Of a stretch of DNA of 64,000 bases, positions 41,598 to 60,949 are shown in pieces. Source of the DNA: Octopus vulgaris (Eukaryota); NCBI GenBank assembly GCA_951406725.2, contig OX597827.1, positions 15,872,001-15,936,000 on the forward strand. Reading direction: 5' to 3'. The notes beneath the pieces were generated by a model. That model saw only the letters and a program-made list of their open reading frames with translations. It was not told where the DNA came from and made no database searches. A program made the translations under genes and the position numbers. Positions within the stretch are counted from its first letter, which is position 1. Every line of letters begins with the position of its first letter.

Positions 41598-43480
41598 TGT
41601 ATGTGTGATATGTCTCTCCTTGTGATTGTTGTAAATGAATGTCATTAATTTCCAATATTCAGTGACATGTCTGATCACATTACCTTATTTGGTAAACAGA
41701 TATGGGTTAGTGAGAGGAAGGGCATCTAGCCATTAAAAATTTGCCTCAATAAACTGTCTGACCTATAAAAGCATAGAAAAGTGGACATCAAAATGATGAT
41801 GATGATGTTGAGCAATGGGAGTGATGCCATGTGGTGTCTGCTCCAACTTTTTGCATTTTGATAGCAATGTATGCGTACTGGTCCTAAGGCCTCAGTACGG
41901 GTAGAGATGGAAGACTCATGCATGGGAATCTTCCATATCATTTAATCTCCATGTTCCATGCCAGCAGGTGCTGGATGCTTTGATAGGATCCAATGGGCCC
42001 AAGGACGACATTGTGCACCAGTGTCAGCTTTGGCATATTTCTACAGCTGGAGGCCTTTCCTAATGCCCATCACTTCACAGCATGTACAAGGTGCTTTGTA
42101 CGTGTCATCAGTACTAGTGAGGCCATTATGTAGTTTGCAAGCTACAAACTCTGGGGAGGGAGGAGATGTCATGTTAGGAGGGGCAAAAGATGGGTAAAAG
42201 TATAATGGCCCAGAGCAGAACAGGTTTAAAAAATCTTACCCAGGGCTGTGTATACAGAGGAAGATAAATAGCTGACCATGACTGATAAAGGCCTTTGGAT
42301 TTGACTGATATTTTATTGGCAGGGTGATAGGCTAAAGTTGAACATAATGCTTGGTCCCTTGTTCTACCAATATCACAAGAAGCAGAAGACCATTCATTTT
42401 GGAGATAGAGCATAATTAATTTGTGCCCAGTATTTAATTAACATTTTCAACATTATGACTTTGAAAGCTACTAATACCTAGATGGCTGGTGAGGAAGTTG
42501 GGCACGACAGAGTTGTTGCTTTCTGCAGGTATAGTAATGATTGCTAGAGTTTACACCCTAGCCTAGGGGAAAGCAATACTAAAAGAAAATTCGTTTGGGG
42601 TTCACATAGTCATTTGCTTGAAGAAACCTAGGTGACACCAATATCACTAAATTGAAACCGACCCCAACACTTGACTGATACTTTATTTTATTGACTGTTT
42701 TGTTCAATATCCTTTCTTCTATTGATAATTCATAGGGTAGGGTGGGTGGGATAGTTTTTTTTTTTTGTAGTTGCTTCCATGAAAAAATGATGGGGTTCCA
42801 CAAGATAAGGAGTCTTAATAAAATTTAATAAAAAAATAAAAACAAGGGATTCACTATTTCAAAGTAATATTTACAGCATTTTCTTTCCTTTTTTTTTTAT
42901 AGATACGATCTTTCTCTCTAAAACAATTTGTTTCATTTAATATCTTAAATTTAGGATGGAGGGGGACTGTCCTTAAAATACAGGAACGAACTTGAGATAT
43001 CATATAAGGGTTACATAACGAAATAAGTTTGGGGAACAGCTGTAGTGGGGGTGGGTTAAATGTAATGGTATCGTCGACTGACTTCATCTTCAGTGCCATC
43101 AGCAAATAACTGGTACGTGGGTTTAACGAACTCCTGCTGTATTTCAAAATTATTTTTGCTGTTCTTCACTTGCCCCAGTGATTGATAAAGATATTGCTCT
43201 TGAAGTACTTAAATGGGCTGAGATTTATGAAACAGTATTTTGGGATATGTGTTTGAACGTGTGAGATACCTACAGATGTTCATTTATACAAGAATTGTTC
43301 ATGCTTTTCAAATCAGCATCAAATTGGTTAACAAACTAAAAAAAAAAATATATATATTTCGCTACACACAGACACATGTAACTCTATATACAGGGTGACT
43401 TGGATGTTCCTTGAACATTTTGGATTAAACTATTAATGTGCTGAAGGGACTTTGGAATCGTGTGAACATATATGTATATA

Positions 43481-43482
<2 letters not shown>

Positions 43483-43534
<52 letters not shown>
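43483..43534. repeat. (GA)n microsatellite, i.e. (CU)n just downstream of the FAM98 donor
   Basis: Direct inspection. Confidence 0.95.
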
Positions 43535-43536
<2 letters not shown>

Positions 43537-43542
43537 ACGAAC

Positions 43543-44686
43543 CTCCACCTTGATTCCAGTTGCCACTCATCTGTTGTGGTTGCTGTTGTTTCTGGTCATT
43601 CCAGTTGCCCTGGATCCGGCCACCTCTACCGCCACCGCGGTCACTCTGGTAGTTCCCACCGCCACCGCCTCCACGTCCTCCTCCGCCGCCGCCGCCACCC
43701 TGGTTAGCGTTCCTCTGCTGGAATGCCGGCATTTCGGGTGGCGGTGGTTCGTGCTCCCAAGCCCTGCCACCGCGATCGGGAACCTGCCCGATCCGGATTT
43801 TGTTGATGGCACACTGGGTTTTTTCACGCGCTTCGCCGCTGCTCGTCTTCTGGATCTGTAACAGACCATCTCTGGCAGCGAGTATCTGACAGATGCCAAT
43901 GTTAGATTTCGATGTTAACTTTTTGATCTGGGCCTCATACACGGCCCGAATCTGTTTTTCGTTTAACCTCGCCTTGTCCGACCACATAAACGATTGAATA
44001 GTAACATCCAGTCGTTTCAACAACATCTCTCGCCGGGTGTTGTACTCCGCCGACAGTGAATTGTTAACGTTTAAAATATGGGCCCACTGTTTGTCGGACA
44101 ATCTTGTCTTCATCAGAGATTTGCCCAGCTGGTTCGGATTTTTGCTCATCATTTCTTTAATCTTAGCTTCGACTTTGGAAAACAGCTGACTCGCTGTTAT
44201 ACTCGCCGGCGGTTTGGCAAAACCGAGAGCAATCAGCATGCTCTTGAGGAAAGCAGCTATTTCAGACTCACTGCTAACTTCTTGGTTGCTCTTAACAGAC
44301 ACCAAAGCTATAGGCTTATTCACAGCGAGCATCATGGAACTTGCTAATTCCATGGTTAAATAGTCGAGTAGTTGCAGACGTGAAGTCTTAGTGTTTAGTC
44401 GATCGTTGATAGTTCCACCGGTCAAACTATTCACAGGACATTCGATCTCGCGAAGGAATGAGCTCAGTTCGAGCATGAACGTATCGCTATCACTAGATTC
44501 TGTGATGGGGTTTACATGTTCCTCCATGATTAGGAAGTCTTTCAGTTTGAGTGAAAGCCATGATACTATCTGAGTAAAGAGCGGCGACCGTTGTCCGTCT
44601 TCCAAAGCCTTGTCAAACTCTTCTCCTTCAATCTGGTCAACTGGATAGCCCAAGTCTTCAAGAACGTCCAGCATATCGCATTCCAT
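43543..44686 (-). CDS. FAM98A: FAM98A/B family protein, first coding exon (whole FAM98 domain)
   Basis: ATG at 44686 gives MECDMLDVLEDLGY...FMLELSSFLREIECP...RLQLLDYLTMEL...EYNTRREMLLKRLDVTIQSFMWSDKA...KTSSG...CAINKIRIGQVPDRGGRAWEHEPPPPEMPAFQQR, which are hallmark FAM98 motifs. An acceptor (ttttgcAG) lies just upstream near 44723-44726. The donor G|GTTCGT is at 43542. Confidence 0.92.
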
Positions 44687-45479
44687 AGCGAGATTTTCAA
44701 AGCCGTGGATGGGCGATGCTGCTGCAAAACAAAGAAAAAGGTAGAAAACAAGATGTAAATGGATAAATCGTTTAGAAAGGAAACAGGCAAGATTTAGCGA
44801 AATCAAATGAGAAATTAATGCAGCAAAACAAAGAAAAAACACTAGGATAATCACCTAAAAAAAGGGACAGTCAATATGTCGAAAGTGCAGGTTCACCAAA
44901 GTTTTACAACGACGTGTGGCAGGAAAACGTTGCCGATAAGAGTTACTTCCCTTTGCCGGCTAATATATATGTGCGTGCAATGTAACGTTTCGTACAAGTT
45001 CGGCTTTTCCCGTCGATTAGGGAGGTGGAGCAGAGAGCAAATGAAAGTATTACAGTATTTAAGTTTCTCATCCCCCAAATCCCTTATGATTTTTAATTTG
45101 AAAAATTCACCGGGGTCTGATTTTTTTTTTTCCTTCTTCTATTTTAAATTAACACAAGGATGTTGAAAATAAGTTGAAAACTATTAATACTGTTACACAT
45201 CTACATCTACAAATACTTATTCTTGTCCATGCTGCATTAACCGCGTGGTATTATTAAAAAAAAAAAACCGGAAACTTTTTTTTTTTTTTTGAAGCTGAAA
45301 AAAAAAAAAACTTTTTCAAGTTTTTTTTTTTGAAAGTATTTTAAGTCTTCCGTTTATATATATATATATATACAGAAATAAAAGGTTTCAAAATTTTATT
45401 TATAATAATAATAACACAGAGGAAAAAAAAAAGAGAGAAACGACGGGAGTAATTAAAGATAATAATATCCTTATGTTAA

Positions 45480-45785: not shown

Positions 45786-45834
45786 ATGCCGACTTATTTC
45801 CTAAGACCCGAGAATGCCCTCAACCGGGCTAACG
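45786..45834 (+). CDS. EIF3A: Eukaryotic translation initiation factor 3 subunit A, coding exon 1
   Basis: accATG gives MPTYFLRPENALNRAN, matching the conserved eIF3a N-terminus; donor G|GTATGT. Confidence 0.95.
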
Positions 45835-47217
45835 GTATGTTATCCCATTCACCCATAACTCACATTTTTCTCCTCCATATATCATCAGGTTATATATATA
45901 TATATGTATATATATATATGTGTGTAGTCTGCGATTGGGTTCTTCGTCATCGCTCTGCCTTACTGTATTTAGGAATCGAACTAATTTTTCTGTAACAAAT
46001 CCTCTTTTGTCTGTCAAAATTAATAACCATGTGACTGACACACACACATATATATGGTACTAGTAGCGTAGACTGGACCCGGTTTGTTCATCGTATTACC
46101 GAAGACGATGCTTTAAATTCATGTATGTGTGTGTGTCTGTGTGTAACAACATTCCTGGCAGATCTGCCACTTAATTGCCTGCGAGTCTAATCTAATTCTT
46201 TGACTGCAGTAATACGACCTCATTGGGGGGGGGGGGGTAAAAAAAAAAAACCCTCTTAGTATATATATCTTACGGGGGATTATAAAAGCCATTGTGTGAT
46301 TTCCCAGTAATTTCTTTCTCGGCTAGGCTATTAAATCACCAGTATTTCTGTGTGTGTGTCTGAGTATACCTGACAAAAGTTTCAATTTATTTACTGAAAA
46401 AAATTCCCAGAGACCGACGACGAACGGATACAATCAAACACGCAGAAGCGCCGCTTTGAGTGGGAATCATCTTGTCTTGCTTGTCTCGCCACCGCTTTTC
46501 GGCTTTCAACATTTCGTTCGAATCGGCTTCCAAAAATATCCCTACTGACCCCCTTTTTATTCATTTTTATTACTATTTCTTATGGATCATCGCTTCTTCC
46601 CTTTAAATTCCGTTCAAACGTCGATCTAAAATGCTTTTTTCCTCCCCTCCCAATCGAGGTTTCTGCGTAACGCTGAAACCTCTGGAAGCACGTTGCTTCC
46701 ATGCTCGACTCGACCTGTTGGTATGGCTGCTTCTTCCTCGTGGCTGAAATACTCTCGAACTCTTCTCTTAAAATATCTCTAATCGCATCTAACCCAATTT
46801 ATATTTTTTTAGGCTTAAAAAGCACCAAAAGTACTCCCCCAAAATATCTACAAGCAACAATGATATTACTACTTGTTTTAATCGGTATCTTTTTAAAATA
46901 ATTAATCTAAGAAATCGAGGTTATATCATGAGATATAACCGTGTATAATAGAATAGACTCCGTCGTCATTGACTTTTTTTTTTTTGACTAATTATCCGGG
47001 TACATGGTTTCATAAATCCTTCTAATTTCTTTATTCGTAGAGTTAAATAATAGCAGTAATGTTCGTTTTGACTTGCTTGACATATAAAACACGTAAAATG
47101 AAATTGTATGAAGCCGATCCTAATCCGTTCCATTATTCCCGGCTACAACATCCATATGGCGGGAGTCTTCGCTTCGAATTAGGGCTCAAAAGTGTGTGTG
47201 TGTGTGTCACACTCTCT

Positions 47218-47253
<36 letters not shown>

Positions 47254-49214
47254 GTTTATAAAACCTGATGACTTTTTTCGTTTTATGATTTGTGCTTATT
47301 CCGCCCCCCCCCACTCGCATTAAATGCTTTATTTAAATATCTAACATTGTCCATGTTTCTTTATGTGTGCCTGAATATACACACATAGTATACGAACTGT
47401 GACGTGGTTATTATATCTGACAATTTAAGAAATTCCCGTATGACCCTTTCTTTGCTTTTTGGTGATTGTACATTTTGTCGATGTTTAATATTTTAGAAAT
47501 CGGATTTTATAAAAAATACAAACTTGAAATTCAGAAAAACCCTCTCTACTTTTGTCTCATCGCCCACTGATCGCCTCGCCTGGTCAATCATCTGGAATTC
47601 CTTCTCTCGCAGACTTATTTTCTACAGACGTTGGAGGGGAATACGAACCTCATCGGTCTGTGAAGGTCATGAGTTTCGGCCACCACTTCTCACTCAGCTG
47701 TAAAAATAAAAATAAAAGCCATTAATGTTATATTAACATACGTAAACGTTGTATGTTCTGATACACCACAGTTAGTTACTAATAAAACTCCTGGTTGTAT
47801 GGTATGCCCTCTTTCATTCAGTTCATTATATGCCAGCATAGGAGGGTATGATGTGAGCGGAATGCAATTTGGCTGCTATTTCTAGCAGGTCGGGCGATCA
47901 CGCTCCCTCATTGGCTCGAGGCATGGCTTTATATCAATCAAGTTAAGCCACTGGTGAAAATTTTACCAATATTTCTAAGGCTATATGCTGTGTAGACTGA
48001 AGCATTTCTACTAACGATAGAAGACTTAGAAAAAAATAGTAAAACAAAGTTTGTGGTGTCAGCAGATAAGCCTGAGAAAAGTTTAATAGATAACTGGTAA
48101 AATTGAAAAGAAAGGTGGTCATCTAATGAAATATATATTTGCATATTCAACTATGTGTCCTTTGATCTTCATAGTTAATTAACAGGAAGATTTTTTTTGC
48201 TTTCAGTGTGATTGTAATTTTATATGATTTGACAATTACACATGGAATTGTCAGTTTGTTACAAAATTTAGTTTTGCCATATGGTAATGAGAGCTGTTGT
48301 TTGATCAGCTGGAAATTAAACTTCACTATCTGTTATATAATTATTTCTTTCCACCTCAAACAATTTCATTTAGTTGACTGTGTCCTGAGATTGGAAACAA
48401 AAAGTTTGATTTTGTTTGGAAATAGTTTGGTATTTATAGAGACAGAAAAGTACTGTAGACAAAAGGGAATTTAGATGTCACATCAAAGAGCATTTTAAAT
48501 AACCCTGTAGAAAATTTCTAAGTTTGCATTTGAATGATTTTTGGTGCAGGGTTTCCTAAACAAGAAATGAAGTATGACCAACTAAATAATTACTATTTCT
48601 AACCAAGCTGGATCTTTAACCCTTTAGTGTTCAGATTATTCAATCAAGCATAATGCCTATTGATTCCCATTGATTTGAATTAATCATGTATTATCTCATA
48701 TCTCCAAGATCTTGATGGTGTAATTACTTAATGTAGAATAACATTGTAGGGTAGGTGTGAGAGCCTAGATCTAGTCAGTTTGAACATAAAACAGATTAAA
48801 TATTTTGGCCGGATTAACTATTTTGGTTAATGTTCTCTCAGCTAGTTGTAAATCCCAAATTATTCTAAAGTGAGAACTTTATATGTGCGTGTACCATCAT
48901 CATCGTCAAATGATCATACACTCATAATTTATACATCTTCAAAACGATTTGTGTTTTACAACCAGCAAAGCGAGCATTAAGAATTCAGCTTAATTGAAAT
49001 AGTGATTACTTGTCATATTTTCATTTCCTCAGTCAAAAGTGATTTAAATGGAAACTAGATACTGCTTTATGATGGAACACATATAAATTCCCTTTGTGTT
49101 TTTATAGATACCAATTTCCAATATAAATCAGAATTCTTATTCCCAGCCCCTGGGCATTGTCAACCAAATGCAAGTGTTTCTGTGTATGTATATACATATA
49201 TATATATATATATA

Positions 49215-49430
49215 GGGAGAGTTTACGAAAAAAACAAAAGACGAAGGCAGGTGGTGCACAAAACAAACAGATGTATTAGTATAACGCTCAGGAATAGAAA
49301 GTCTTTTACGTTTCGAGCCTACGCTCTTCTACAGAAGGGGACACAGAAAAAACAAGGAGAGAAAAGAATGTGTGTAGTGGCTAACGATCAATCGTGGCGA
49401 CTAGTGCCGGACAGAAGGGTCACAAAGAGA
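49215..49430 (-). mobile_element. Penelope-like terminal fragment with a variant hammerhead (49303-49338)
   Basis: Minus strand CCUU-CUGUAGAA-GAGC(GUAG)GCUC-GAAA-CG-UA-AAAG; flanked by TA/CA microsatellite. Confidence 0.65.
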
Positions 49431-50398
49431 TGTGTACATGTACACACACATATATATATATATATTGAGTATGCACTACACTTTAGCTTTTGCCCTTCTC
49501 AACCATTTCTTGCTCTTCTACTGTCACTGTCCTCTCTTATTTCTTTCCTCAGTCTACATGCTTTAGATTAGAGTCCCTCTACGTTTAATGTGTGCAAAGC
49601 ACTCCACTTTCCCCTTAGTGAATGGTGAGTGAGGTAACTTCTCTAATGCTGGTGCCATGAAAAGGTGCACCCTGTACGCATGGTAAAGTGACTGGCAATG
49701 AGCAGAGAATGCTAAAGGTTGTTCAGTTGTTTTAGTTCTTCCTTGTTGAGAATTATTCAACCTCTGATATTGGTGCCACAAGAAAATGCATCCAGTGCAC
49801 TTTGCAGTGGTTGGCAGTAGGAATGGCATTCAGCTACAGAAACAATGTATGAGCACATGTCTACGAGAATAGTGGCTTCTAATTAGAAATCACTTTAACC
49901 ATGGCAACCTGTCTACTCATGCCAGCATGTAAAATGATGATACATAATTGTGTGTGTATATGTATGTATGTATATGTGTGTGTGTGTGTAAATAAAAGTA
50001 TACAGTATTATGGATCCACATAAGCTCAGTTTTGCACTGAGTATTAAGTTACCGGATGTTAAATAACAGGGCAGTTACCCAACACCCCGTGTTCTTCAGA
50101 GATGGCAGGTATGGAAAAAATATGGCAACAGCTCTGTTGTTGGTGAAGTTTCGCATCCAGTTTGCTGGTACTTTGAAAAAAGATAACCAAAATCACAGGA
50201 GACAACTGTGCAAGATTTATCAAGAGATCCTTCAGTTCAGTTATCTTCTGCAATTTTGTGTCCCCCCCCCCCCAGCACCCACAAACTGTATGTAACATTT
50301 TTCACCTCCAATAACAGAGTAGTTACTATATATTATTTTCCACCTGCCATCTCCTAAAAGTACATGGTGTTGGTATAACAGCTGAAATGGCTCTATAA

Positions 50399-50599
50399 CA
50401 GTGGTTTTCAACCAGGGTTCTGCCAGTACAGTCCAGGGGTTCCGCAAGAAGTTACAAAACTGCTAAAATCGGCAGTAATTTATAATTCTCCTGTGCAGAT
50501 ATGTGTGCATAAGACTATTAAATTATTGCACAGGGGTTCCTCGAGCCAGTGGAATGTTTCCTTGGGGTTCCGCTCCAGCAAAAAGTTTGAAAAGCACTG
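50399..50599. mobile_element. hAT-type MITE
   Basis: TIRs CAGTGGTTTTCAACC / GTTTGAAAAGCACTG with an exact 8-bp TSD CTCTATAA. Confidence 0.88.
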
Positions 50600-50693
50600 C
50601 TCTATAATATATTCTTTAACATACTCACTCTATGTGAGTGCCTTTTTTTTTCTGATTTATGGATTCTTAGATGATATATATATATATATATAT

Positions 50694-50790
50694 TCCCTCT
50701 CTGTTTATTTTCTCATGTTCCTTTCCGTTGAAGAGCATAGGCTCGAAACGTAAAAGACTTTCTCACCTTCCCAAGCGTTAAACTAATACA
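50694..50790 (+). mobile_element. Penelope-like terminal fragment with a variant hammerhead (50721-50756)
   Basis: CUUU-CCGUUGAA-GAGC(AUAG)GCUC-GAAA-CG-UA-AAAG; follows (TA)n. Confidence 0.62.
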
Positions 50791-52145
50791 CTTGACTGGG
50801 ACAACAATTTTTAACATAGTCCACCTAGTTGAACAAGCCAATAAACCAAAGAATTAAGTCTCAATTAACTCCAAGGTTATTAATAAATCTGATTCTGTAA
50901 ATGTATACTGTCCCACCATCTATAAATTAACATCAAATACTACTAATCGTTATCATAATTTGATGTCTATCTGCTTCACTGGTTTGGCTCGGACAGTTCC
51001 ACATAATCTAATGAGCTAGAGGACTACATTAAAAGGAACTGGTCTTGTAGTAAAGAGGCAAGATGGCTTTGTGCTGGGAGTTGAGAAGGTAAAATAGGAT
51101 TGCTCCTGCTGTAGAGGAAATACATGGTTACAGTATATTATATAAGCATGGGTGGGAATAGGTGGAATGAGATAAAAATAGTGGTGATAAGGTGTGTAGG
51201 ATATACTCTCAAGGTACAAGAAGGTGAGTGTAACAGAATACTGGAAGGGTGAGTGGGTAACGGTATGGGAAGAGTGACATGTGGTTAGAGATGGGGATAT
51301 GAGTGATAGTAGTGAATGGTGATTGAGGTTTAAAGTGTGGTCAGTGTTAAATATCAGATTGATGGTGGGGTGGAGGATAGCAGTATAATAAAATTGTCTG
51401 TAGATGGGAAAATAGGAGAGGGAGTGATAGAAATGGAGGCTTAACAGTTGCAGCCGTGGAAGTCAGAGATATGTAGGGGTGGGCGTGAGTGGTAGACAAA
51501 AGTAGTGGGGTGTCTGTGGCAGGAATGAGAGGGTGTTGAGAATGATAGCAGACATGGATGGGTTTTAGGGATGAGGTATGGCAGTTGTGAGCTGTAGCTC
51601 AGGGGAAAGGGAAGGGTCAGCAGAGGAAGGGGTGATCAGCAGAAAATTAAGAGGCAAGGAATGATTATTGAGTGCCAGACCAATATTAAAAGGAAGCAGT
51701 TTCAAGGAGAAAAATAGCTGGTTGCACAAAAAGATGAAGTATGGGCAGTACTGATGTGTCAGGAAGATGAAAAGGGTGCAGGGATAGGGCCCAGTTTGTA
51801 TAGAAATAAACAATGTTTTCAGGACCATATTGTGTATATATATACACACACACACATGCAGATATACATGCTGATATAATTCTAAGAATGTAAGGAATGA
51901 AAAAGGGTAAATAAAGACTACATATGTTTCTTAGCTAAACTTGATGTGTTACATAACTTGCAACACATACAAAACCTGTTTAGCTACTCCTTAGTTCAGA
52001 TTACTTTCGAGTTTATATTATTGCATGGAGAAGAGTGAATGAGTCAGTTCAAGTATTATCTGCTATAGGAGTCAATATGTTGCATAGGGTGGGTTGATTT
52101 GACAGTCTACTCTGAGTTTCACTTATATATGTGTGTGTGTGTATG

Positions 52146-52321
52146 TATTGCTAGCCACTACACATACTTTATTTTCTCTTGTTTCTTTCTGTGGAAGAGT
52201 GTAGGCTCGAAACGTTAAAGACTTTTTCACTTCTCAGGCGTTAAACTAATACATCTGTTGTCTACACCACCTGTCTTTGTCTCTCTTTTAAAAATTTTTT
52301 TTTTTTGTGGATTCTCCCCCT
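52146..52321 (+). mobile_element. Penelope-like terminal fragment with a variant hammerhead (52184-52221)
   Basis: UCUUU-CUGUGGAA-GAGU(GUAG)GCUC-GAAA-CG-UU-AAAGA; microsatellite flanks. Confidence 0.62.
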
Positions 52322-52579
52322 ATATATATATAGAGAAAGAGAAATGATGGGCTTCTTTCAGTTTCTGCCTACCAAATTCTCTCACAAGGCTTTGTTTGGT
52401 TAGACTGGAATTATAGAAGACACTTGCCCATGGTGCCATGCAGTGGGACTGAACCCAGTACCATATGATTGAGCTGCAATTTTCTTAACCACTGCACCAT
52501 AGTACCCCGTTTATTAAGTTGATAGATTGTCTATAGATTATGGCCATGGTGTGGCTAGGTCACACAGGTAGTTTAATAT

Positions 52580-53064
52580 GCTCTGGTCTGGTGGTACGTA
52601 AAAAGCACTATCCGACTCGTGGCCGTGGCACGTAAAATACTCCAATGTGACCGTACGACAGGCATCCGTGCCAACCCCCTTTGCTTGTGAAGACATGTTG
52701 GGGCAATCGAAATCGAATTGAACCAGCCAGGATCCCTGGTCTGGTGGTACGTAAAAAGCACTATCCGACTCGTGGCGGATGCCAGCACCGCCTCGACTGG
52801 CTTCCGTGCCGGTGGCACATAAAATACACCAATCCGACCGTGGCCGTTGCCAGCCTCACCTGGCACCTGTGCAGGTGGCACGTAAAAAGCACCCACTACA
52901 CTCACGGAGTGGTTGGCGTTAGGAAGGGCATCCAGCTGTAGAAACATTGCCAGATTAGACTGGAGCCTGGTGCAGCCTTCTGGCTTCCCAGAACCCCGGT
53001 CGAACCGTCCAACCCATGCTAGCATGGAGAACGGATGTTAAACGATGATGATGATGATGATGAT
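52580..53064 (+). mobile_element. Retroposon family D
   Basis: Repeated units plus the conserved 3' end with (GAT)n. Confidence 0.72.
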
Positions 53065-54123
53065 AATTGAAGTGGGTTCTGTGTTGTAGAGAAACTTGTT
53101 GATGAAAGCACGACAAGGGCCAGTAATGATAGGCAGAACTAACTTAATGAGACTGAAGACCAAGGTCATTATATATAAATGGGACGATGGCATGTTGCCA
53201 CCTGGTGTCATTAAACCAGATGTTACCTCTACACTGTACTAATTTTTGTGTATGGCGAGGCAGGCTTGCTGATGTAATTAGGAGGCTATGCAAAGGATAT
53301 AAAAGTTTTCAGAATGGTACAGAGTTCTTGAAGTGAAATGGGTGGCATGTCAAACAGATGCCATTCCTCAAGAAATTTTCATGGTGGTGGAGCTTGGATT
53401 CAATGGTCAGTCTGATATAGTGTGTGTGTGTGTGTACAGATACACACACAGCAGCAGCAGCATTTAACAACCTTGTTCCATGCTGGTATGGATTGGACGC
53501 TTTGACACAAGATCCAGTGGGCTGAAGGACTGAATTGTGCTCCAGTGTCTGTTTTGACATGGTTTCTATGGCTATCTGCCACTTCACAGCTTGTACAAGG
53601 GTGCATTTTTGTGCCGTCAGCACTAGTGAGGTCACCATACAGCTTGCAAGACTAGACTATTAAAGCATAATGGTGGGACAGCTATATGCTAGACCAGTGT
53701 TTCCCACACTTTTCGTGCCAAATTGCAATATCACCCACCTATCAGCCAAAAAATGTACCATCGCCCACTCACGTAAAAAAAACAACCCCACCTTGTATCA
53801 TATGACACACACACTATATTGTAGACTTGTTGTGCCCAGTTAGTGCTGCTTAGACTAAATATGCAGTTGTTTACAAATCCCTTATTGTGGGTTTAGTTTT
53901 GCAATTTGTGTGAATAAAATTCTAACTTAAACTCTATAGACAGATTAACTTTGGTAAACTTGCACCTTCTTTTACACTGATTTTTATTTTCCCCAAATGA
54001 ATCATTTATCAGACTACCAATGCAAAAATAATTAATGATTGTATTATAAAGGAAAAGAGTACAACTTTTTAATGAGAACCATGTGTTTTTAGTTAATTTT
54101 TTGGCTCAAAAAGCAAAAAGCAA

Positions 54124-54318
54124 GGCCATGTAGGGGGACATGGAGTTATGTACAGGGTGGTGTTCATGTAAAGAGTTCAGGCCATTTGTGGTCAAGGGAG
54201 ACTTTGAACCGAGCGGTCGTCGGCATCTTCACTATCTCATCCGGCAGCTTATTCCACGGATCCGCAACCCGGACGGAGAAAGCCCCCTCTCCTTCGATTG
54301 AGATGAAATCGTTGCAGG
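54124..54318 (-). mobile_element. Second CR1-like family, 3' end
   Basis: Minus strand reads RREGAFSVRVADPWNKLPDEIVKMPTTARFKVSLD. Confidence 0.7.
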
Positions 54319-55571
54319 TGTGATGCAGCTAGTGCAGATACATTTGGTTTCAAACTTGTCAACTTTAGACACAAATCTCTTCATTGTGTCACATCCAGTC
54401 CAATTCTTTTATGGGAAAGTAAAGTTCCAACATGGCTAAAACCAGATTCAACCAGATACAAGGTAGGGAAGGCAAGCAAAAGTAATTTCAGATGTTTGCA
54501 CAGATTGGGGTAGGAATTCAATATACTTTGATGGTACCACAAACCTTCTTTGCCATTACAGCGATATCGCATTGTGGTGTCATTGTCATTTTGTAATTCT
54601 ATTAATTTATCCTGAATGTCATCTTCGCAATTGACTGCAGCATAATAGCATCTTGAAATCGCTCCACCCTGTTATCGTGCAATGATTATAAATAGTTGCG
54701 ATATGTAGTTAAATCCTCATCAACCAATTCATCTTTCAAAGCATCAAGTTGTGGAAATTGATGTAATTCACGTTTTGAAATGCATCCTTATTCTAGGCAT
54801 GCTGAGATATAAGTTAAAACGGTACCAATTTTGAATTGAAGATAGTGATAAATGATTAACAATCATTGAAAGTTTTTCCGTTCCTTTGCAATAACCTATT
54901 CAAATCATTTAATTTTGTGAATATATCACAAAGAAAAAAGATATCACACCTTGCAGCCATCAATGCAATAGTGGGGTATCTTCAAAGAAAGATATGATTA
55001 TATGAAACAGTTCAACACAATTACCTTTTGACAGCCACTGCACTTCGGTATGGTATAAGAGTTTAGTATAGTCCTCATCATTTCTCAGACAGAGTTGAAG
55101 GAAAATTCTGTCAGACAAGGGACTGGACTTCAATTTGTTGAGAGTCTTGATAACTAACTGTAGTGCATCATTCAATGTACCGTTCATATTTTTTGTCACT
55201 AAATGCTGCCAGTGTACCAAGCAATGGACAGTTAGTATCTGGTGGGAAATTTCTGCTTTGGGAGAGATGAAAAACCTCAGTATCTTCCTACTATTGAAGG
55301 GGCTCCATCAGATGCACAGGCAAGAATGTTTTACTGAATGGGATATTATATTATGTTCAAAAAAGAAAGACTTGAGAGTGTGGAAAATAGGTGTATCTTT
55401 TGGATCAAGCAGCAATTTCTCTGCGACCAGCATTTCTTCACAAGGTTGAAGGTCTTTGAAATACTGAACATATGCCATCATCAAACATTGATTGTTCACA
55501 ACACTTGACTCATTCACTTGTATAGAAAATTCAGAAAGCTGGAGAATATTAATGAGCTGTTGTTTGACATC

Positions 55572-55802
55572 TATTTCTATATTACCCACAAGGGGCTAAA
55601 CACAGAGGGGACCAACAAGGACAGACATAGGTATTAAGTCGATTACATCGACCCCAGTGCGTAACTGGTACTTAATTTATCGACCCCGAAAGGATGAAAG
55701 GCAAAGTCGACCTCGGCAGAATTTGAACTCACAACGTAACGCAGACGAAATACCGCAAAGCATTTCGCCCGGCGTGCTAACGATTCTGCCAGCTCGCCGC
55801 CT
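55572..55802 (-). mobile_element. SINE family A inserted in a hAT transposase relic
   Basis: Full copy; TGTTTGAYATC duplicated on both flanks. Confidence 0.85.
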
Positions 55803-56147
55803 TGTTTGATATCGTTGGCCATTTCATTGATGTGTCGAGAAATCATGTTATTACTAAGTGGGATCCTCTTCATAATGTTATCTGGTTTTTCAATCATAAT
55901 GGTTGACAAAATCTCTTCGGTAACTGGGCGAAGTAATGTTTCTCCACTTGTGTGAGACTTCCCAGACTTAGCAACAAGCAATGCAATGCTGTACGATGCA
56001 ATTGATCCATCATTCTCCTGCTTACTAGTTTCCTGGAGTAGCATGTTGAATATTTGTGTTTGCTTTTTGAAAGAGGCGCTCATTTGCAGAAAGTATAGCA
56101 ACGGCTTGTTGTTCTTGTCAGAATGCTTTGCATCAAAGTGATACTTC

Positions 56148-56586
56148 AAGCATGGGCATGGACACATTGAAACTCCGACGTCTGGCAGCTGACTTGGCAG
56201 ACACCCATAAAATTATCAACCATCGTACCAACAATAACTCTGAGCACCTTTTCAAACTCCACCCGTCTAACACCCGTGGACATATTTACAAAGTCAGAAA
56301 ACAGCACAGCTCCCATGACTTTAGGAAACATTTTTTCACGCTGAGAGTTGCTGAAGCATGGAACAAACTGCCGGCATCAGTTGTTAGTTGTCGGAGCACT
56401 GCATCCTTCAAAACTTCCATGCTTTCTGAGATTCGCCAACACTACACCTGATTTTCTCCCCTCCATACACACACAGGCATGTATCTGACTCATACACTGT
56501 TCGCTTTCCAGACATTTGTACATTACTGCATATACTCTGACAAGTTGTGGTGCACCTGAGCACTGTATACAATAATTTCATTATTA
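56148..56586 (+). mobile_element. CR1-clade LINE 3' end inserted in a hAT transposase relic
   Basis: Same family as 28945-29437; splits the transposase at MKPS|CLK. Confidence 0.85.
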
Positions 56587-57453
56587 TATGAAGGTTTCAT
56601 TGCTTCATCGGTCAGCGTTTGATGGCAAAGAAGGCACATCGGTAACTGACAGTTATGAGGAGAGGGAATAAATCCAAATGATAAATAATTGCTACTGTAC
56701 TGTCAACAAATTTCTACGGGTGGCATCAGAAAGGCAGTGTGGTATTCCCAAAGAGAAGTCGTCGATAGAGCAAAGTCAAATGACACATCTTTGCTGGAAC
56801 AAATATGGATCTAGTTTGTTTGGCTGCCAGCATTTCAGAAGATTTTTGCAAATTTGCATTCTACACGCGGGAATTCATACAGTTATGCCAAAAGGAAAAA
56901 TTGCGGTGGAGCGTGATATAAGGCCTAGATCTATTTGGCTGCTATTTTTAGCACATATGACTGCGACAAAAATATTTGATCAGTAAACAAGTCCGCTTTT
57001 TTAATACAAAGGGATGTCTCATGCGATTAGTCTGATCAATAAAAATGCATCCTTTTTCTAGGCATGCCAAGATATAATTAAATACAGACTTGATTTCTTA
57101 AAATTCTTTGTCACCCACAAAATGTTCATATCACCCACCATTTTCTAGAAATACGCCCATCACTCATGTGGTTAACAGAGCTGATCAGTACTGAATTCAA
57201 CCGTACTTTATCTAGTGTTCTCAAACAAAGCAGATCCTACTTTTGTTGCTTTTGAAAGGACTATTAACAAGAAAAGAAATTGAATAATTATGTGAAACAG
57301 CAAAAAAAATAAAGCTTTGTATTTCACCTATTGACAAAGGTGTCTCAAGATAGTTAATTTATTTCGTTAGTAAATAAATGACAAATTTTACAATAAATCT
57401 TCTGTTAGTAGTAAAGGCGTGACATTTTTTCTTGGTTAACAGAAAAACAAGTG

Positions 57454-57866
57454 GGATCTTTTCAGTTTGAACGGCAGTTTTTTCTAGCAGTGTCATATGA
57501 AATTGTCACCCATAATTATGACCCTAGTACAGATCTATTGCATTTCAATCTATTTTAGGGTTAGGGATGGGGGAAGGGTATCTTTTTTTTCTTCAGAAAT
57601 GTAAATAAACCCAATCTGTTTCTTAAACGAGGGACATTTTCATATGGCACAGAATGTTTTCACCTCAATAGATGTCATTGATTGGTTGAAATTGCAGAAA
57701 ACGAAGAAAAAAACCCAACAAATATCTTACAAACCGTAGAATTTTCTCAATAAAGCCAAGAGAAAAAGATGTTTTATAAACACATTCTACAAGTATACGA
57801 ATTTTAAAATTTTTTAGTTATGTGGAAATTATTTTAAAACAACTGCCGTTCAAACCGAAAAGATCC
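57454..57866. mobile_element. MITE family H
   Basis: Same TIRs; 8-bp TSD AACAAGTG. Confidence 0.85.
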
Positions 57867-58314
57867 AACAAGTGTATTGGGGCAATGGACTGGTACTAAG
57901 AGAGGAAAATGTAGACCATTTATACATTTCAGTCAGTTAATGGTTCAACATGAACTCAGTGTACTGTTAGCCAGAAAACACTCTGATAATTCATAATCTT
58001 ATATCTGTTACTTTTACTTAACATTAAGTGTTCACTGTGCAAGGTTAATTAGCTTCTCTCCACTTGCACCTGCATCATACTTGTATTAAAGCCAGTCCAC
58101 ATGCCATGTCGAAGACCAGTGGTCAAATTGAGATCTGCTGATGACCTGCAACTATATTCAGTTGTAGATGAAGCTCATGTTAGTCGTGATCAGGTCGATT
58201 TTTGAGCTAGTGTTCCAGTATGACCGTTCCATGTAAGGATTCCATTTTCTAATGCATCATTGGGTGATTGCCTCATAGGCTTAGGTACCACAATGACATG
58301 AGCTGTATAATATA

Positions 58315-58533
58315 TATTTCTTTACTACCTACAAGGGGCTAAACACAGGAGGGACAAACAAGGACAGAGAAACGGATTAAGTCGATTACATCGTCGCCAG
58401 TGCGTAACTGGTACTTAATTTATCAACCCCGAAAGGATGACAGGCAAAGTCGACCTTGGAGGAATTTGAACCCAGAACGTAACGGCTATGCATTTCGCCT
58501 GGTGTGCTAACGTTTCTGCCAGCTTGCTGCCTT
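58315..58533 (-). mobile_element. SINE family A
   Basis: Head, core and tail; TSD AGCTGTATAATA. Confidence 0.8.
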
Positions 58534-60562
58534 TGAGCTGTATAATATAGATGAGACCAAAGCAATTGACATTGATTCCTCCCCGGATGCTGTCTGCAGA
58601 ATATTGGCATGATAGGAAGAGGAACAGAGAATGGGTTTTAGTTTGGATCACAGTGACTTTACAGATTGATGTGTTATCTTCACCCAACTGTTGAAGGTGG
58701 TCTGTGAAACCATGTCTCACTTTTTTTTTTATTTGGGGGTGTTTCAGTTATTTAACCTTTTTGTTCCTATATTGCTAACCAGAAAGCACCTGTTAGGTGT
58801 TCCAATTAAATTCTGAAATAATCATGAGTTTAGACTGTTTTCATAAAACAACTTTTATTTTTCAAATACAATTTAACTGAAAGGTTTTTAGTTAATATTC
58901 AAGGAGCATGCAACAAAATTTAATACAGAATACCTGTGCAGATAACTAGGTTATCTATAAGTCAAACTTAATGCACATAGGGACAGGTGTACCATAAAGG
59001 TAAAATAGAACAAAATACTGGAATGTGTCTGAAGAAAACTTGGAAATGTAGTACACAGAAACACATAAGGATTCACAATATAAAATAATCAAAATTTGTC
59101 ACACCTTAGAGGTAAATAATTCATAAAAATGAGGTAAATTTGAAAAAAAATATATTTATGAATCGAATTTATGTATACACACACACACACACACACACAC
59201 AATATTACTAAAAATGCTTGGATTTCTTTCTCCCAAGCATATGGAAACCTCAAACTGTTGCTTTTTCCTTTTTGTTCATGTTTTATATAAGGGTTTGTTT
59301 CCACAGTAATAGCTTCAAAGAGCTATGGAAAATGGTGGAATTCTGCTTTAAGTATGCCATATACACCCTTATAACTTTTAAAAAATTTTTTGTGTATTTA
59401 TGTTCTATGCACAGAAATTCATATGACTGAAAACAATTGTTTTTTTCTTCAATTTAAAAAAATGGTCGAAATCTGGGGAGTCTGAAGTTTTTACTTAAAT
59501 CCCAGCAATAATAGACTATGAAATGTGTTTATGAGGTGAAAGACATTGAAAAACATCATTACTTCAGTGACAAAGAAATGAGAAGGGCATTAGGTGGACG
59601 TGAGATGTACTAAAATAACAGCTAAATAACCCTTAAAATCACAGTCATTTTTCTTTTCTTTGTGCGTATTCATATGAATTCCTATATGCAGAACACAGAT
59701 GCGTAAAAATTTTCTTGAAATTTTTAAAAAATGGAAAAAGATATGAGGGGTTATATATATGGTGTACTTAAAGCAGAATTCTACCAAAAAAACAGTTTAA
59801 AATTTTTTACTATACTCAGGTGCAAATTGACTTTTTTTTTGCTATCGGAACTGTTGTCGGAATTGTTTCACTTATGTTTGCCTTATATTTTCTTAGGTTC
59901 TTTTATATCTTTGAATTTGAACTTGTTGCTTGACAACAAGAAAGTGGTATACAGTTTTTGTCCATAGTGGAACATTTCAGAAAATCAAAGTGTAAAAGAA
60001 CAGGGGGGAAATTTCCAAAAATTTGCAGCTCTCAGATATCATATAAAATAATGTCAGACAGTGTAACTCGTTTATTTAATGAAATCACGTGTTTTCACAA
60101 GTGTGTTAACAAGATTTACGCTGAAATGCACATTCAGATATGAATAGGATCATTTTGAGTGATTATGGGCGTTTTGGTAACTCTTTCAATTACTTTAAAT
60201 ATAACACAGAATTTAGTAAAATAACTTTATCATTAAGCTAATGTTAGGAACATAAATTGTGACTAAGGTTTGGTGGAAGATTTTCATTCAAAACTTATGA
60301 TATTTGTACTCAGAGCCAGAGCCGGGTTGGTAATGAAAGGGTTAACCAGAATTTTTTCAGATGTCTACAAGGTGGGTTAGTGACAAAAGGGTTAAAAAAA
60401 AGCTTGTTTGCTGCAGCCAATGGCAAACCATATTACACAAATACACTCCCCTTTCTCTTGAGCCTCTTCAGTTTCCCAACTTCATCGTTGTGCAACATGG
60501 AAACTACTTTTGACCAATATCCGAATAGCTACTTTAGATCAATGCAATAGAAAGAAAATTCT

Positions 60563-60760
60563 TTTAAAGAAATTCAAGTATAAAATCATACTAAATCTTT
60601 GTAATTTCTTGTTTTATTGCTTTTAGAATTTAAAGAAATTCAGGTATAAAATCATACTAAATTTTTGTGATTTCTTGTTTTATTGCTTTTAGAATTTAAA
60701 GAAATTCAGGTATAAAATCATAGTAAATCTTTGTTATTTCTTGTTTTATTGTTTTCAGAA
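60563..60760 (+). repeat. Three tandem 66-bp copies of the eIF3a exon 2 splice-acceptor region
   Basis: AG dinucleotides at 60625-60626, 60691-60692 and 60757-60758, each preceded by the same branch/polypyrimidine sequence. Confidence 0.9.
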
Positions 60761-60949
60761 TTTATTGATGTGGACAAGAAACAACGTGCCTTGGATGTCC
60801 TGTACGATGTCATCAAAAGTAAGAAACACCGCACATGGCAAAAGATTCACGAGCAGATTATGGCCAAGTACCTTGAGCTCTGTGTCGATCTCCGGAAGAG
60901 TCACATTGCAAAAGAGGGCTTGTACCAGTATAAGATTATTTGTCAACAG
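60759..60949 (+). CDS. EIF3A: eIF3a coding exon 2
   Basis: tttcAG acceptor; [64 protein letters not shown]; donor GTTAGT; frame continuous with exon 1. Confidence 0.96.

Follow-up and report, generated by a model that had tools for sequence, protein, structure and literature searches.

The three hammerhead-like motifs in the first coding intron of eIF3a belong to a family that has U rather than A at position 6 of the ribozyme core (U6) and that lies in the terminal repeats of a Penelope-like element (PLE). Judged by its sequence, the motif is a variant of the PLE minimal type I hammerhead and not a canonical member, and the element that carries it is a very abundant, young, still intact, and autonomous retrotransposon.

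Three motifs in an eIF3a intron

By "the window" we mean the whole 64-kb stretch of DNA that was analysed. The features that matter here, in window coordinates, are:

45786..45834, + strand: first coding exon of eIF3a, with its ATG at 45786
45835..60758, + strand: predicted first coding intron of eIF3a (GT..AG, phase 1; donor 45835, acceptor 60758), which contains all three copies
49215..49424, - strand: copy 1, a 5'-truncated terminal repeat (pLTR) of a Neptune element, A7 subfamily, with a (TA)n end; antisense to eIF3a; ends approximate
49303..49338, - strand: hammerhead-like motif within copy 1; its core is CUGUAGAA, H17 is A, and stem I has one mismatch
50695..50794, + strand: copy 2, a terminal-repeat fragment that is truncated at either end and belongs to the intermediate U7 subfamily; sense to eIF3a
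50721..50756, + strand: hammerhead-like motif of copy 2, core CCGUUGAA, private change U4C; predicted cut 3' of 50752
52147..52320, + strand: copy 3, a 5'-truncated terminal repeat of the G7 subfamily, with a (TA)n end; sense to eIF3a
52184..52221, + strand: hammerhead-like motif of copy 3, core CUGUGGAA, stem II with one U-G pair; cut predicted 3' of 52216
60759..60949, + strand: second coding exon of eIF3a (Pfam PF22591 match, E 5.8e-23)

The first coding exon encodes an N-terminal peptide that we take to be that of eIF3a. A sequence-only reading of this DNA had reported the three motifs, and all of them are present at these positions in the intron. The sense copies 2 and 3 are separated by 1,464 nt, with the antisense copy 1 in the same intron, and homology among the three copies extends over 100-210 nt. 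Copy 1 reads CCUU CUGUAGAA GAGC GUAG GCUC GAAA CG UA AAAG; copy 2 reads CUUU CCGUUGAA GAGC AUAG GCUC GAAA CG UA AAAG; and copy 3 reads UCUUU CUGUGGAA GAGU GUAG GCUC GAAA CG UU AAAGA. The 5' arm of stem I had been described as YUUU, which fits copies 2 and 3, but copy 1 has CCUU with one C-A mismatch. The variable pyrimidine that had been given at core position 4 turns out to be a change private to copy 2 (U4C), not a feature of the family: the U4C pattern has 154 exact matches genome-wide, or about 1%. Position 7 (N7) differs among the three copies because they belong to three subfamilies (A7, intermediate U7, and G7).

The family has the expected nucleotide at every position of the PLE minimal type I core (C3 U4 G5 A6 N7 G8 A9) except position 6. 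It also has the extra nucleotide that separates position 9 from 10.1, G10.1-C11.1, G12 A13 A14 A15.1, and U16.1 H17, and, in sequence, the palindromic 15.1-16.1 (ACGU) that would form stem III of a dimer. The sequence-only reading had counted the extra A before stem II as part of the variant. However, the published consensus for minimal hammerheads, CUGANGAH, already includes this nucleotide between 9 and 10.1, along with G10.1-C11.1 and a palindromic 15.2-16.2 (PMC4209133), so U6 is the single departure from the consensus. The metazoan PLE hammerheads described there (Cervera and de la Pena 2014) resemble ours in their U-rich leader, a stem I of 4-5 bp, the additional nucleotide that follows A9, G10.1-C11.1, GAAA, palindromic CG, and UH, as well as in having a motif in each terminal repeat around the RT-EN ORF and thousands of solo truncated copies. 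In contrast to our family, the rows of their Fig. S3 that we examined have A6, and the core variant that they report is U3-A8. As had been expected, standard models miss the motif: Rfam gave 95 matches at E ≤ 10 in the 64-kb window, and none of these was a hammerhead.

U6 across the genome

We searched the genome (2.8 Gb, 227 contigs) with a 27-nt pattern. With U6, there were 15,730 exact matches, against 180 with A6 and 372 with C6 (G6 has no separate count in this tally); the reversed control had 0. When the core was left free, there were 16,712 matches, and among the first 100 of these listed (from one contig, tallied by hand), 96 had U6. In the same 100, C3 was found in 99, U4 in 97, G5 in 97, G8 in 96, A9 in 100, and the extra A in 98, while N7 was split as U42/A26/C20/G12. 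A canonical control family from the same genome gave the mirror image, with A6 in 97 of the first 100 of its 1,737 matches. There is also a canonical sister family, which has A6, shares the stem II arms, and has loops of 3 nt; it makes up the bulk of 4,868 matches. All 76 motifs of the young family, from 56 loci that were selected for their ORFs, have U6. Finally, a scan with a hammerhead descriptor over loci totalling 603,534 bases, some of them chosen for the motif, found 136 matches, while three shuffles gave 0. The proposal that U6 is a family-level variant instead of random decay is borne out by these counts and by its fixation in at least five successive subfamilies, and the genome-wide consensus has a U6 core, not the canonical CUGANGA.

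The 30 A6 copies that we fetched have ordinary subfamily flanks and are scattered over the flank tree, with the exception of one chimera, so they are point mutants. A C6 subfamily was considered and rejected, as the 372 matches have mixed N7 and are scattered on the tree, which again indicates point mutants. We also rejected an A6 ancestor within the GUAG-loop lineage, as an A6 copy used as the query retrieves U6 neighbours, and a second U6 family with other stems, for which the 132 matches are either indel mutants of the U6 family or point mutants of a canonical family. The genome contains further canonical hammerhead families with other stems II and III (loci L047, L068, L127, and L190-L195).

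Among 118 metagenome matches listed for U6, 4 close both stems; none of these is near a match to a PLE ORF, and one lies beside a canonical twin. A search of viral contigs for U6 motifs found nothing. Contigs from four sequencing runs with four other organism labels had no other letter at position 6, but they had no other letter at N7 either, so this table is uninformative; one contig, from organism B, spanned the core, which was unchanged. One metagenome contig (L295:1460-1530) has two minimal hammerheads that are back to back and inverted, one with A6 and one with U6. The survey by Lunse, Weinberg and Breaker is reportedly the largest of PLE hammerhead variants. We found no natural A6U core in the literature that we searched; Lunse, Weinberg and Breaker 2017, Scott 2013, and the supplements of PMC8557442 lie outside that set and may list U6.

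A Neptune-type element with the motif in its terminal repeats

The loci around the motif encode a GIY-YIG domain upstream of it, on the same strand. A protein search yielded 147 scored matches among 18,699 candidates, with long open frames in many of them. In 12 of the 16 loci that were picked for having the longest frames, two U6 motifs on the same strand, 3.9-4.6 kb apart, flank the RT-EN frame; once loci with shorter ORFs are included, 18 of 56 have this arrangement. The open frames have 1,000-1,200 residues and form a single ORF with a reverse transcriptase and, at its C terminus, a GIY-YIG domain. RVT_1 scores above the cut-off and GIY-YIG just below it (E 0.0004-0.005); homologues carry both PF00078 and PF01541, and the CCHH residues of the GIY-YIG domain can be seen by eye. 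The sequence-only reading had assigned the termini to PLEs and suggested looking for such an ORF, and this provides the link, to a Neptune RT/GIY-YIG ORF.

The linker CX2-5CxxC between RT and EN is present in the translations as CSRPRCRTC, and we found both partial-tandem pLTRs and (TA)n targets. For 48 of the 76 motifs, the distance from H17 to the start of the (TA)n is 101-104 nt, and 18 of the 76 have no (TA)n within 200 nt; most of these are 5' repeats that run into the body of the element. The Neptune clade, as described by Craig 2021 (PMC8557442), shares with our element the RT followed by this linker and then by GIY-YIG at the C terminus, the partial-tandem pLTRs, and the (TA)n targets. 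From the domains, linker, pLTRs, and targets we infer that the element belongs to the Neptune clade, although the linker is also found in Nematis. According to PMC8557442, canonical hammerheads are universal outside of Naiad/Chlamys, and the U6 family is an exception to this rule at position 6.

Near motifs of the canonical sister family (L226:1002-4079 and L229:1690-4970) there is an RT-like frame with 28-34% identity to the ORF of the U6 family, and the motifs are opposite to it in strand.

Subfamilies and constraint on the motif

We grouped 161 distinct copies into at least five subfamilies that differ in their flanks and at N7 (old U7, intermediate U7/C7, G7, A7, and young U7); with the coarse cut, 29 of the 161 fall in none of the three large clusters. 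Even in the oldest subfamily, which was retrieved with an A6 query, position 6 was U in 23, C in 4, and A in 0 of the 27 copies that were called (29 were examined). Between the old and the young subfamily, 69 of 182 four-fold degenerate sites in the ORF differ (38%, or a corrected distance of 0.53), and the flanks of the motif are just 67% identical. Yet the 36-nt motifs differ only at H17 (binomial P about 1e-5 to 1e-6), so the conservation of the motif over its flanks, which had been proposed as a check, is found. Across all of the subfamilies, variation in the motif is confined to N7 and H17. These are the positions that a working hammerhead leaves free. Because only N7 and H17 change while silent sites in the ORF have diverged by 38%, the motif as a whole is, from this comparison of copies, under selection.

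This claim is limited to the whole motif, as selection on U6 by itself lacks significance: the chance of retaining U6 under neutrality at d = 0.53 is about 0.59. A6 revertants are present in every subfamily, and none of them has founded an A6 subfamily.

Covariation, another check that had been proposed, does not support stems I and II within the family. Pairing holds in 91% of cells, yet the stems hardly vary, and 52 of 500 shuffles score as high (9 sequences), so this analysis cannot tell selection on structure from selection on sequence. Across subfamilies there is no variation in stem II or its loop, and GUAG is the dominant loop. We also observed that over successive subfamilies N7 takes all four states and H17 toggles between A and U, which is more change than the silent-site distance (about 0.5) predicts.

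Mutations shared by the two repeats of an insertion

In 11 full-length loci, 9 of 9 private doubleton substitutions were common to both repeats of one locus (the chance is 1/21 for each; there were also 17 singletons). Furthermore, the two repeats of one insertion differ by 4.3 changes per 510 nt, versus about 8 between loci (10 loci). The shared variants flank the predicted cut on both sides, with 19 upstream, some of which may be alignment slips, and 3 downstream (16 loci). The 5' ends of the repeats lie anywhere from 329 to 1,422 nt upstream of the motif. Because both repeats of an insertion share private mutations, these data point to each insertion copying one unit-length template for more than one round, and they would be direct sequence support for a unit-length, re-read template. 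(A circular RNA template was proposed for PLEs in PMC4209133.) Alternatively, gene conversion, re-priming by the RT, or genome assembly could account for the shared mutations.

Using the shared mutations to locate the join in the template was rejected, as they are logically unable to place it and there is only one chimera. That chimeric repeat (L072:1400-1620), the only clear one, combines an upstream flank and A6 core from the canonical sister family with a GUAG loop and tail from the U6 family; the switch is upstream of the cut, in shared sequence.

What U6 might do to the ribozyme

In the folding model, U6 completes a helix of U4-G16.2, G5-C15.2, and U6-A15.1 (plus U7-A14 in the U7 subfamilies), and the predicted helix occupies both the core and the ACGU palindrome. 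The predicted probability of the 6:A15.1 pair is 0.41-1.00 in U6 copies, versus 0.00 in those that naturally have A6. It is possible to draw a nested dimer fold, and its energy is negative, but it is not the minimum-energy fold. The active dimer is predicted to lie 8-13 kcal/mol above the minimum-energy dimer in U6 copies, as compared to about 7 in matched A6/U7 revertants; tertiary terms are outside of the model, and other A6 copies show equally large gaps. The canonical sister family has its own predicted misfold, so this lock is not special to U6. The identity of N7 also sets its predicted strength.

Minimal hammerheads are described as weak and dependent on dimerisation (PMC4209133), and position 6 has been altered in other hammerheads. 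The closest natural case is the hammerhead of phage Bcep176, which has A6C: its cleavage is lowered but not abolished (Perreault 2011, PMC3088659), and it is slow in Mg2+ but has good activity in Mn2+ (Naghdi 2020, PMC7151607). The same core position is naturally substituted in both cases, but in Bcep176 it is C in a single phage ribozyme and here it is U, fixed in a high-copy retroelement lineage; the low activity in Mg2+ is a property of Bcep176. In a type III hammerhead, all of the single and double mutants of the CUGA turn had low activity except for a swap of C3 and G8 (PMC9901934); the passages of that paper that bear on this hold no figure that we could find for A6U specifically. In the structural description of PMC11300833, A6 stacks on G5 and points away from the turn.

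Another relevant system is the Poseidon PAc hammerhead from Anolis carolinensis, which cleaves only with the element's protein, and on whose cleavage insertion in vitro does not depend (PMC11167929). As in our family, this is a pLTR hammerhead of an EN+ PLE, with a fixed 3' tail downstream of the motif and AT-rich targets. However, its core is canonical and the motif overlaps the start of the ORF, while in our family about 730 nt separate the motif from the ATG downstream of it, and the protein-assisted cleavage that was demonstrated for Poseidon PAc would apply here only by extension.

We consider the chances to be about even that the motif is a damped, conditional ribozyme, which alone would stay closed and which would have to refold as a dimer in order to cut, probably together with the element's protein. 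According to the folding predictions, U6 would zip the core shut by pairing with A15.1. Cleavage would be slow, given the published A6 mutants; the element's protein would assist it, by analogy with Anolis Poseidon; and the cut might serve to circularise or end-join a unit-length template. Several observations weigh against a ribozyme of this kind. First, A6U on top of an already weak minimal hammerhead may simply be dead. Second, the ends of the copies do not map to the cut, with 3' ends 101-104 nt past H17 (48 of 76) and variable 5' ends. Third, Naiads are described as spreading without canonical hammerheads (PMC8557442), and mutating the Anolis Poseidon hammerhead left insertion in vitro unaffected (PMC11167929). 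A bolder proposal is that U6 is a selected switch, which, by zipping the catalytic core onto the palindrome used for dimerisation, would keep the ribozyme off in host transcripts and in monomers until the RT-EN protein of the element unlocks it, leading to the cut and to a closed circular template of 4.5 kb that goes through more than one round of copying. We think that this is rather unlikely, but if true, it would be a natural protein-gated hammerhead, based on a core letter that was thought to be invariant, and carried by an autonomous retrotransposon whose copies number in the tens of thousands.

A different explanation is that A6U inactivated the ribozyme early on and that the motif has another job, as a rod-like hairpin or sequence signal that is read by the element's RT or by a host factor, with the RT re-reading its template by jumping and without self-cleavage. 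The invariance of the GUAG loop and of both stem II arms would fit sequence-specific recognition, and the model has U6 completing a continuous helix. The slow A6 mutants (PMC9901934, PMC3088659), the dispensability of cleavage for Anolis Poseidon in vitro (PMC11167929), and the copy ends that do not map to the cut are all consistent with a dead ribozyme as well. What such a signal does not explain is that variation among subfamilies is limited to N7 and to H17 (A or U), which are exactly the positions that are free in a hammerhead, while the catalytic positions C3, G5, G8, A9, G12-A15.1, and U16.1 stay fixed. We regard the dead ribozyme as possible but doubtful.

It also seems improbable that U6 is fully tolerated in the context of the extra A, the GUAG loop, and the dimer, with cleavage about as good as in the canonical A6 sisters and perhaps an altered metal preference like that of A6C. 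This would suit the most abundant hammerhead family that we counted (15,730 exact matches versus 4,868 and 1,737), the existence of intact young copies, the good activity of A6C in Mn2+ (PMC7151607), and the stacking of A6 away from the turn (PMC11300833). On the other hand, published changes at A6 reduce activity in Mg2+ (PMC7151607, PMC9901934, PMC3088659), and the larger gap predicted for U6 dimers than for matched revertants also speaks against it, although other A6 copies have gaps as large.

The U6 family offers a clean natural test of whether PLEs need hammerhead cleavage: an intact, young, autonomous element whose changed core letter is fixed across five or more subfamilies, A6 revertants that arose naturally and are otherwise identical, and, from the same genome, a canonical sister whose stem II is the same. 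Should U6 cut, then the hammerhead consensus and the search descriptors need to be widened, as Rfam and CUGANGA descriptors miss more than 16,000 copies here. Should it not, then a very successful PLE can do without cleavage, and its motif has a second role that is not catalytic.

The copies in eIF3a as probable insertion remnants

The three copies in eIF3a are likely to be inert, passive remnants of insertions. The sequence-only reading had suggested that the two sense copies could dimerise and that the antisense copy could pair with them. Cleavage by such a dimer is unlikely, given U4C in copy 2 and the G-U pair in stem II of copy 3, and the pairing of copy 1 with either of them, which is predicted at about -103 kcal/mol, would block the folding of the hammerhead. 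That the copies act locally on the eIF3a pre-mRNA, with the two sense copies dimerising to cut the intron and the antisense copy regulating them, would make sense of two sense copies and one antisense copy within a single intron, but it is very improbable: three copies in 64 kb is an unremarkable density when a family has more than 16,000 exact matches, the copies are drawn from three subfamilies of different age, each has its own private damage, and sense-antisense pairing is predicted to dominate. As these are independent insertions of different age with private damage, ordinary density, and sense-antisense pairing, a local role of any kind in eIF3a is unlikely.

The same intron contains other repeats. 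At 50392-50606 there is a 215-nt piece of an interspersed repeat that is 96% identical to locus L045, and at 52560-53065 there is a SINE-like element that contains internal repeats and has (GAT)n as its tail. A purine-rich stretch at 50800-51830, between copies 2 and 3, has no match to the element's ORF, its UTR, or any of the loci that we fetched; a PLE body between copies 2 and 3 was accordingly rejected, as there is no ORF or element match there. On the minus strand, the broken reading frames at 54384-55595 and 56526-56702 resemble a hAT-type transposase.

Two further observations concern eIF3a itself. The acceptor region of the intron is duplicated nearly in tandem (60674-60765, + strand), so that another AG precedes the in-frame acceptor by about 67 nt. 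On the other side of the gene, a long uninterrupted frame at 43436-44854 (- strand) matches Pfam DUF2465 (E 7e-106) and is presumably FAM98-like; it is head to head with eIF3a, about 1 kb away, and a shared promoter is possible.
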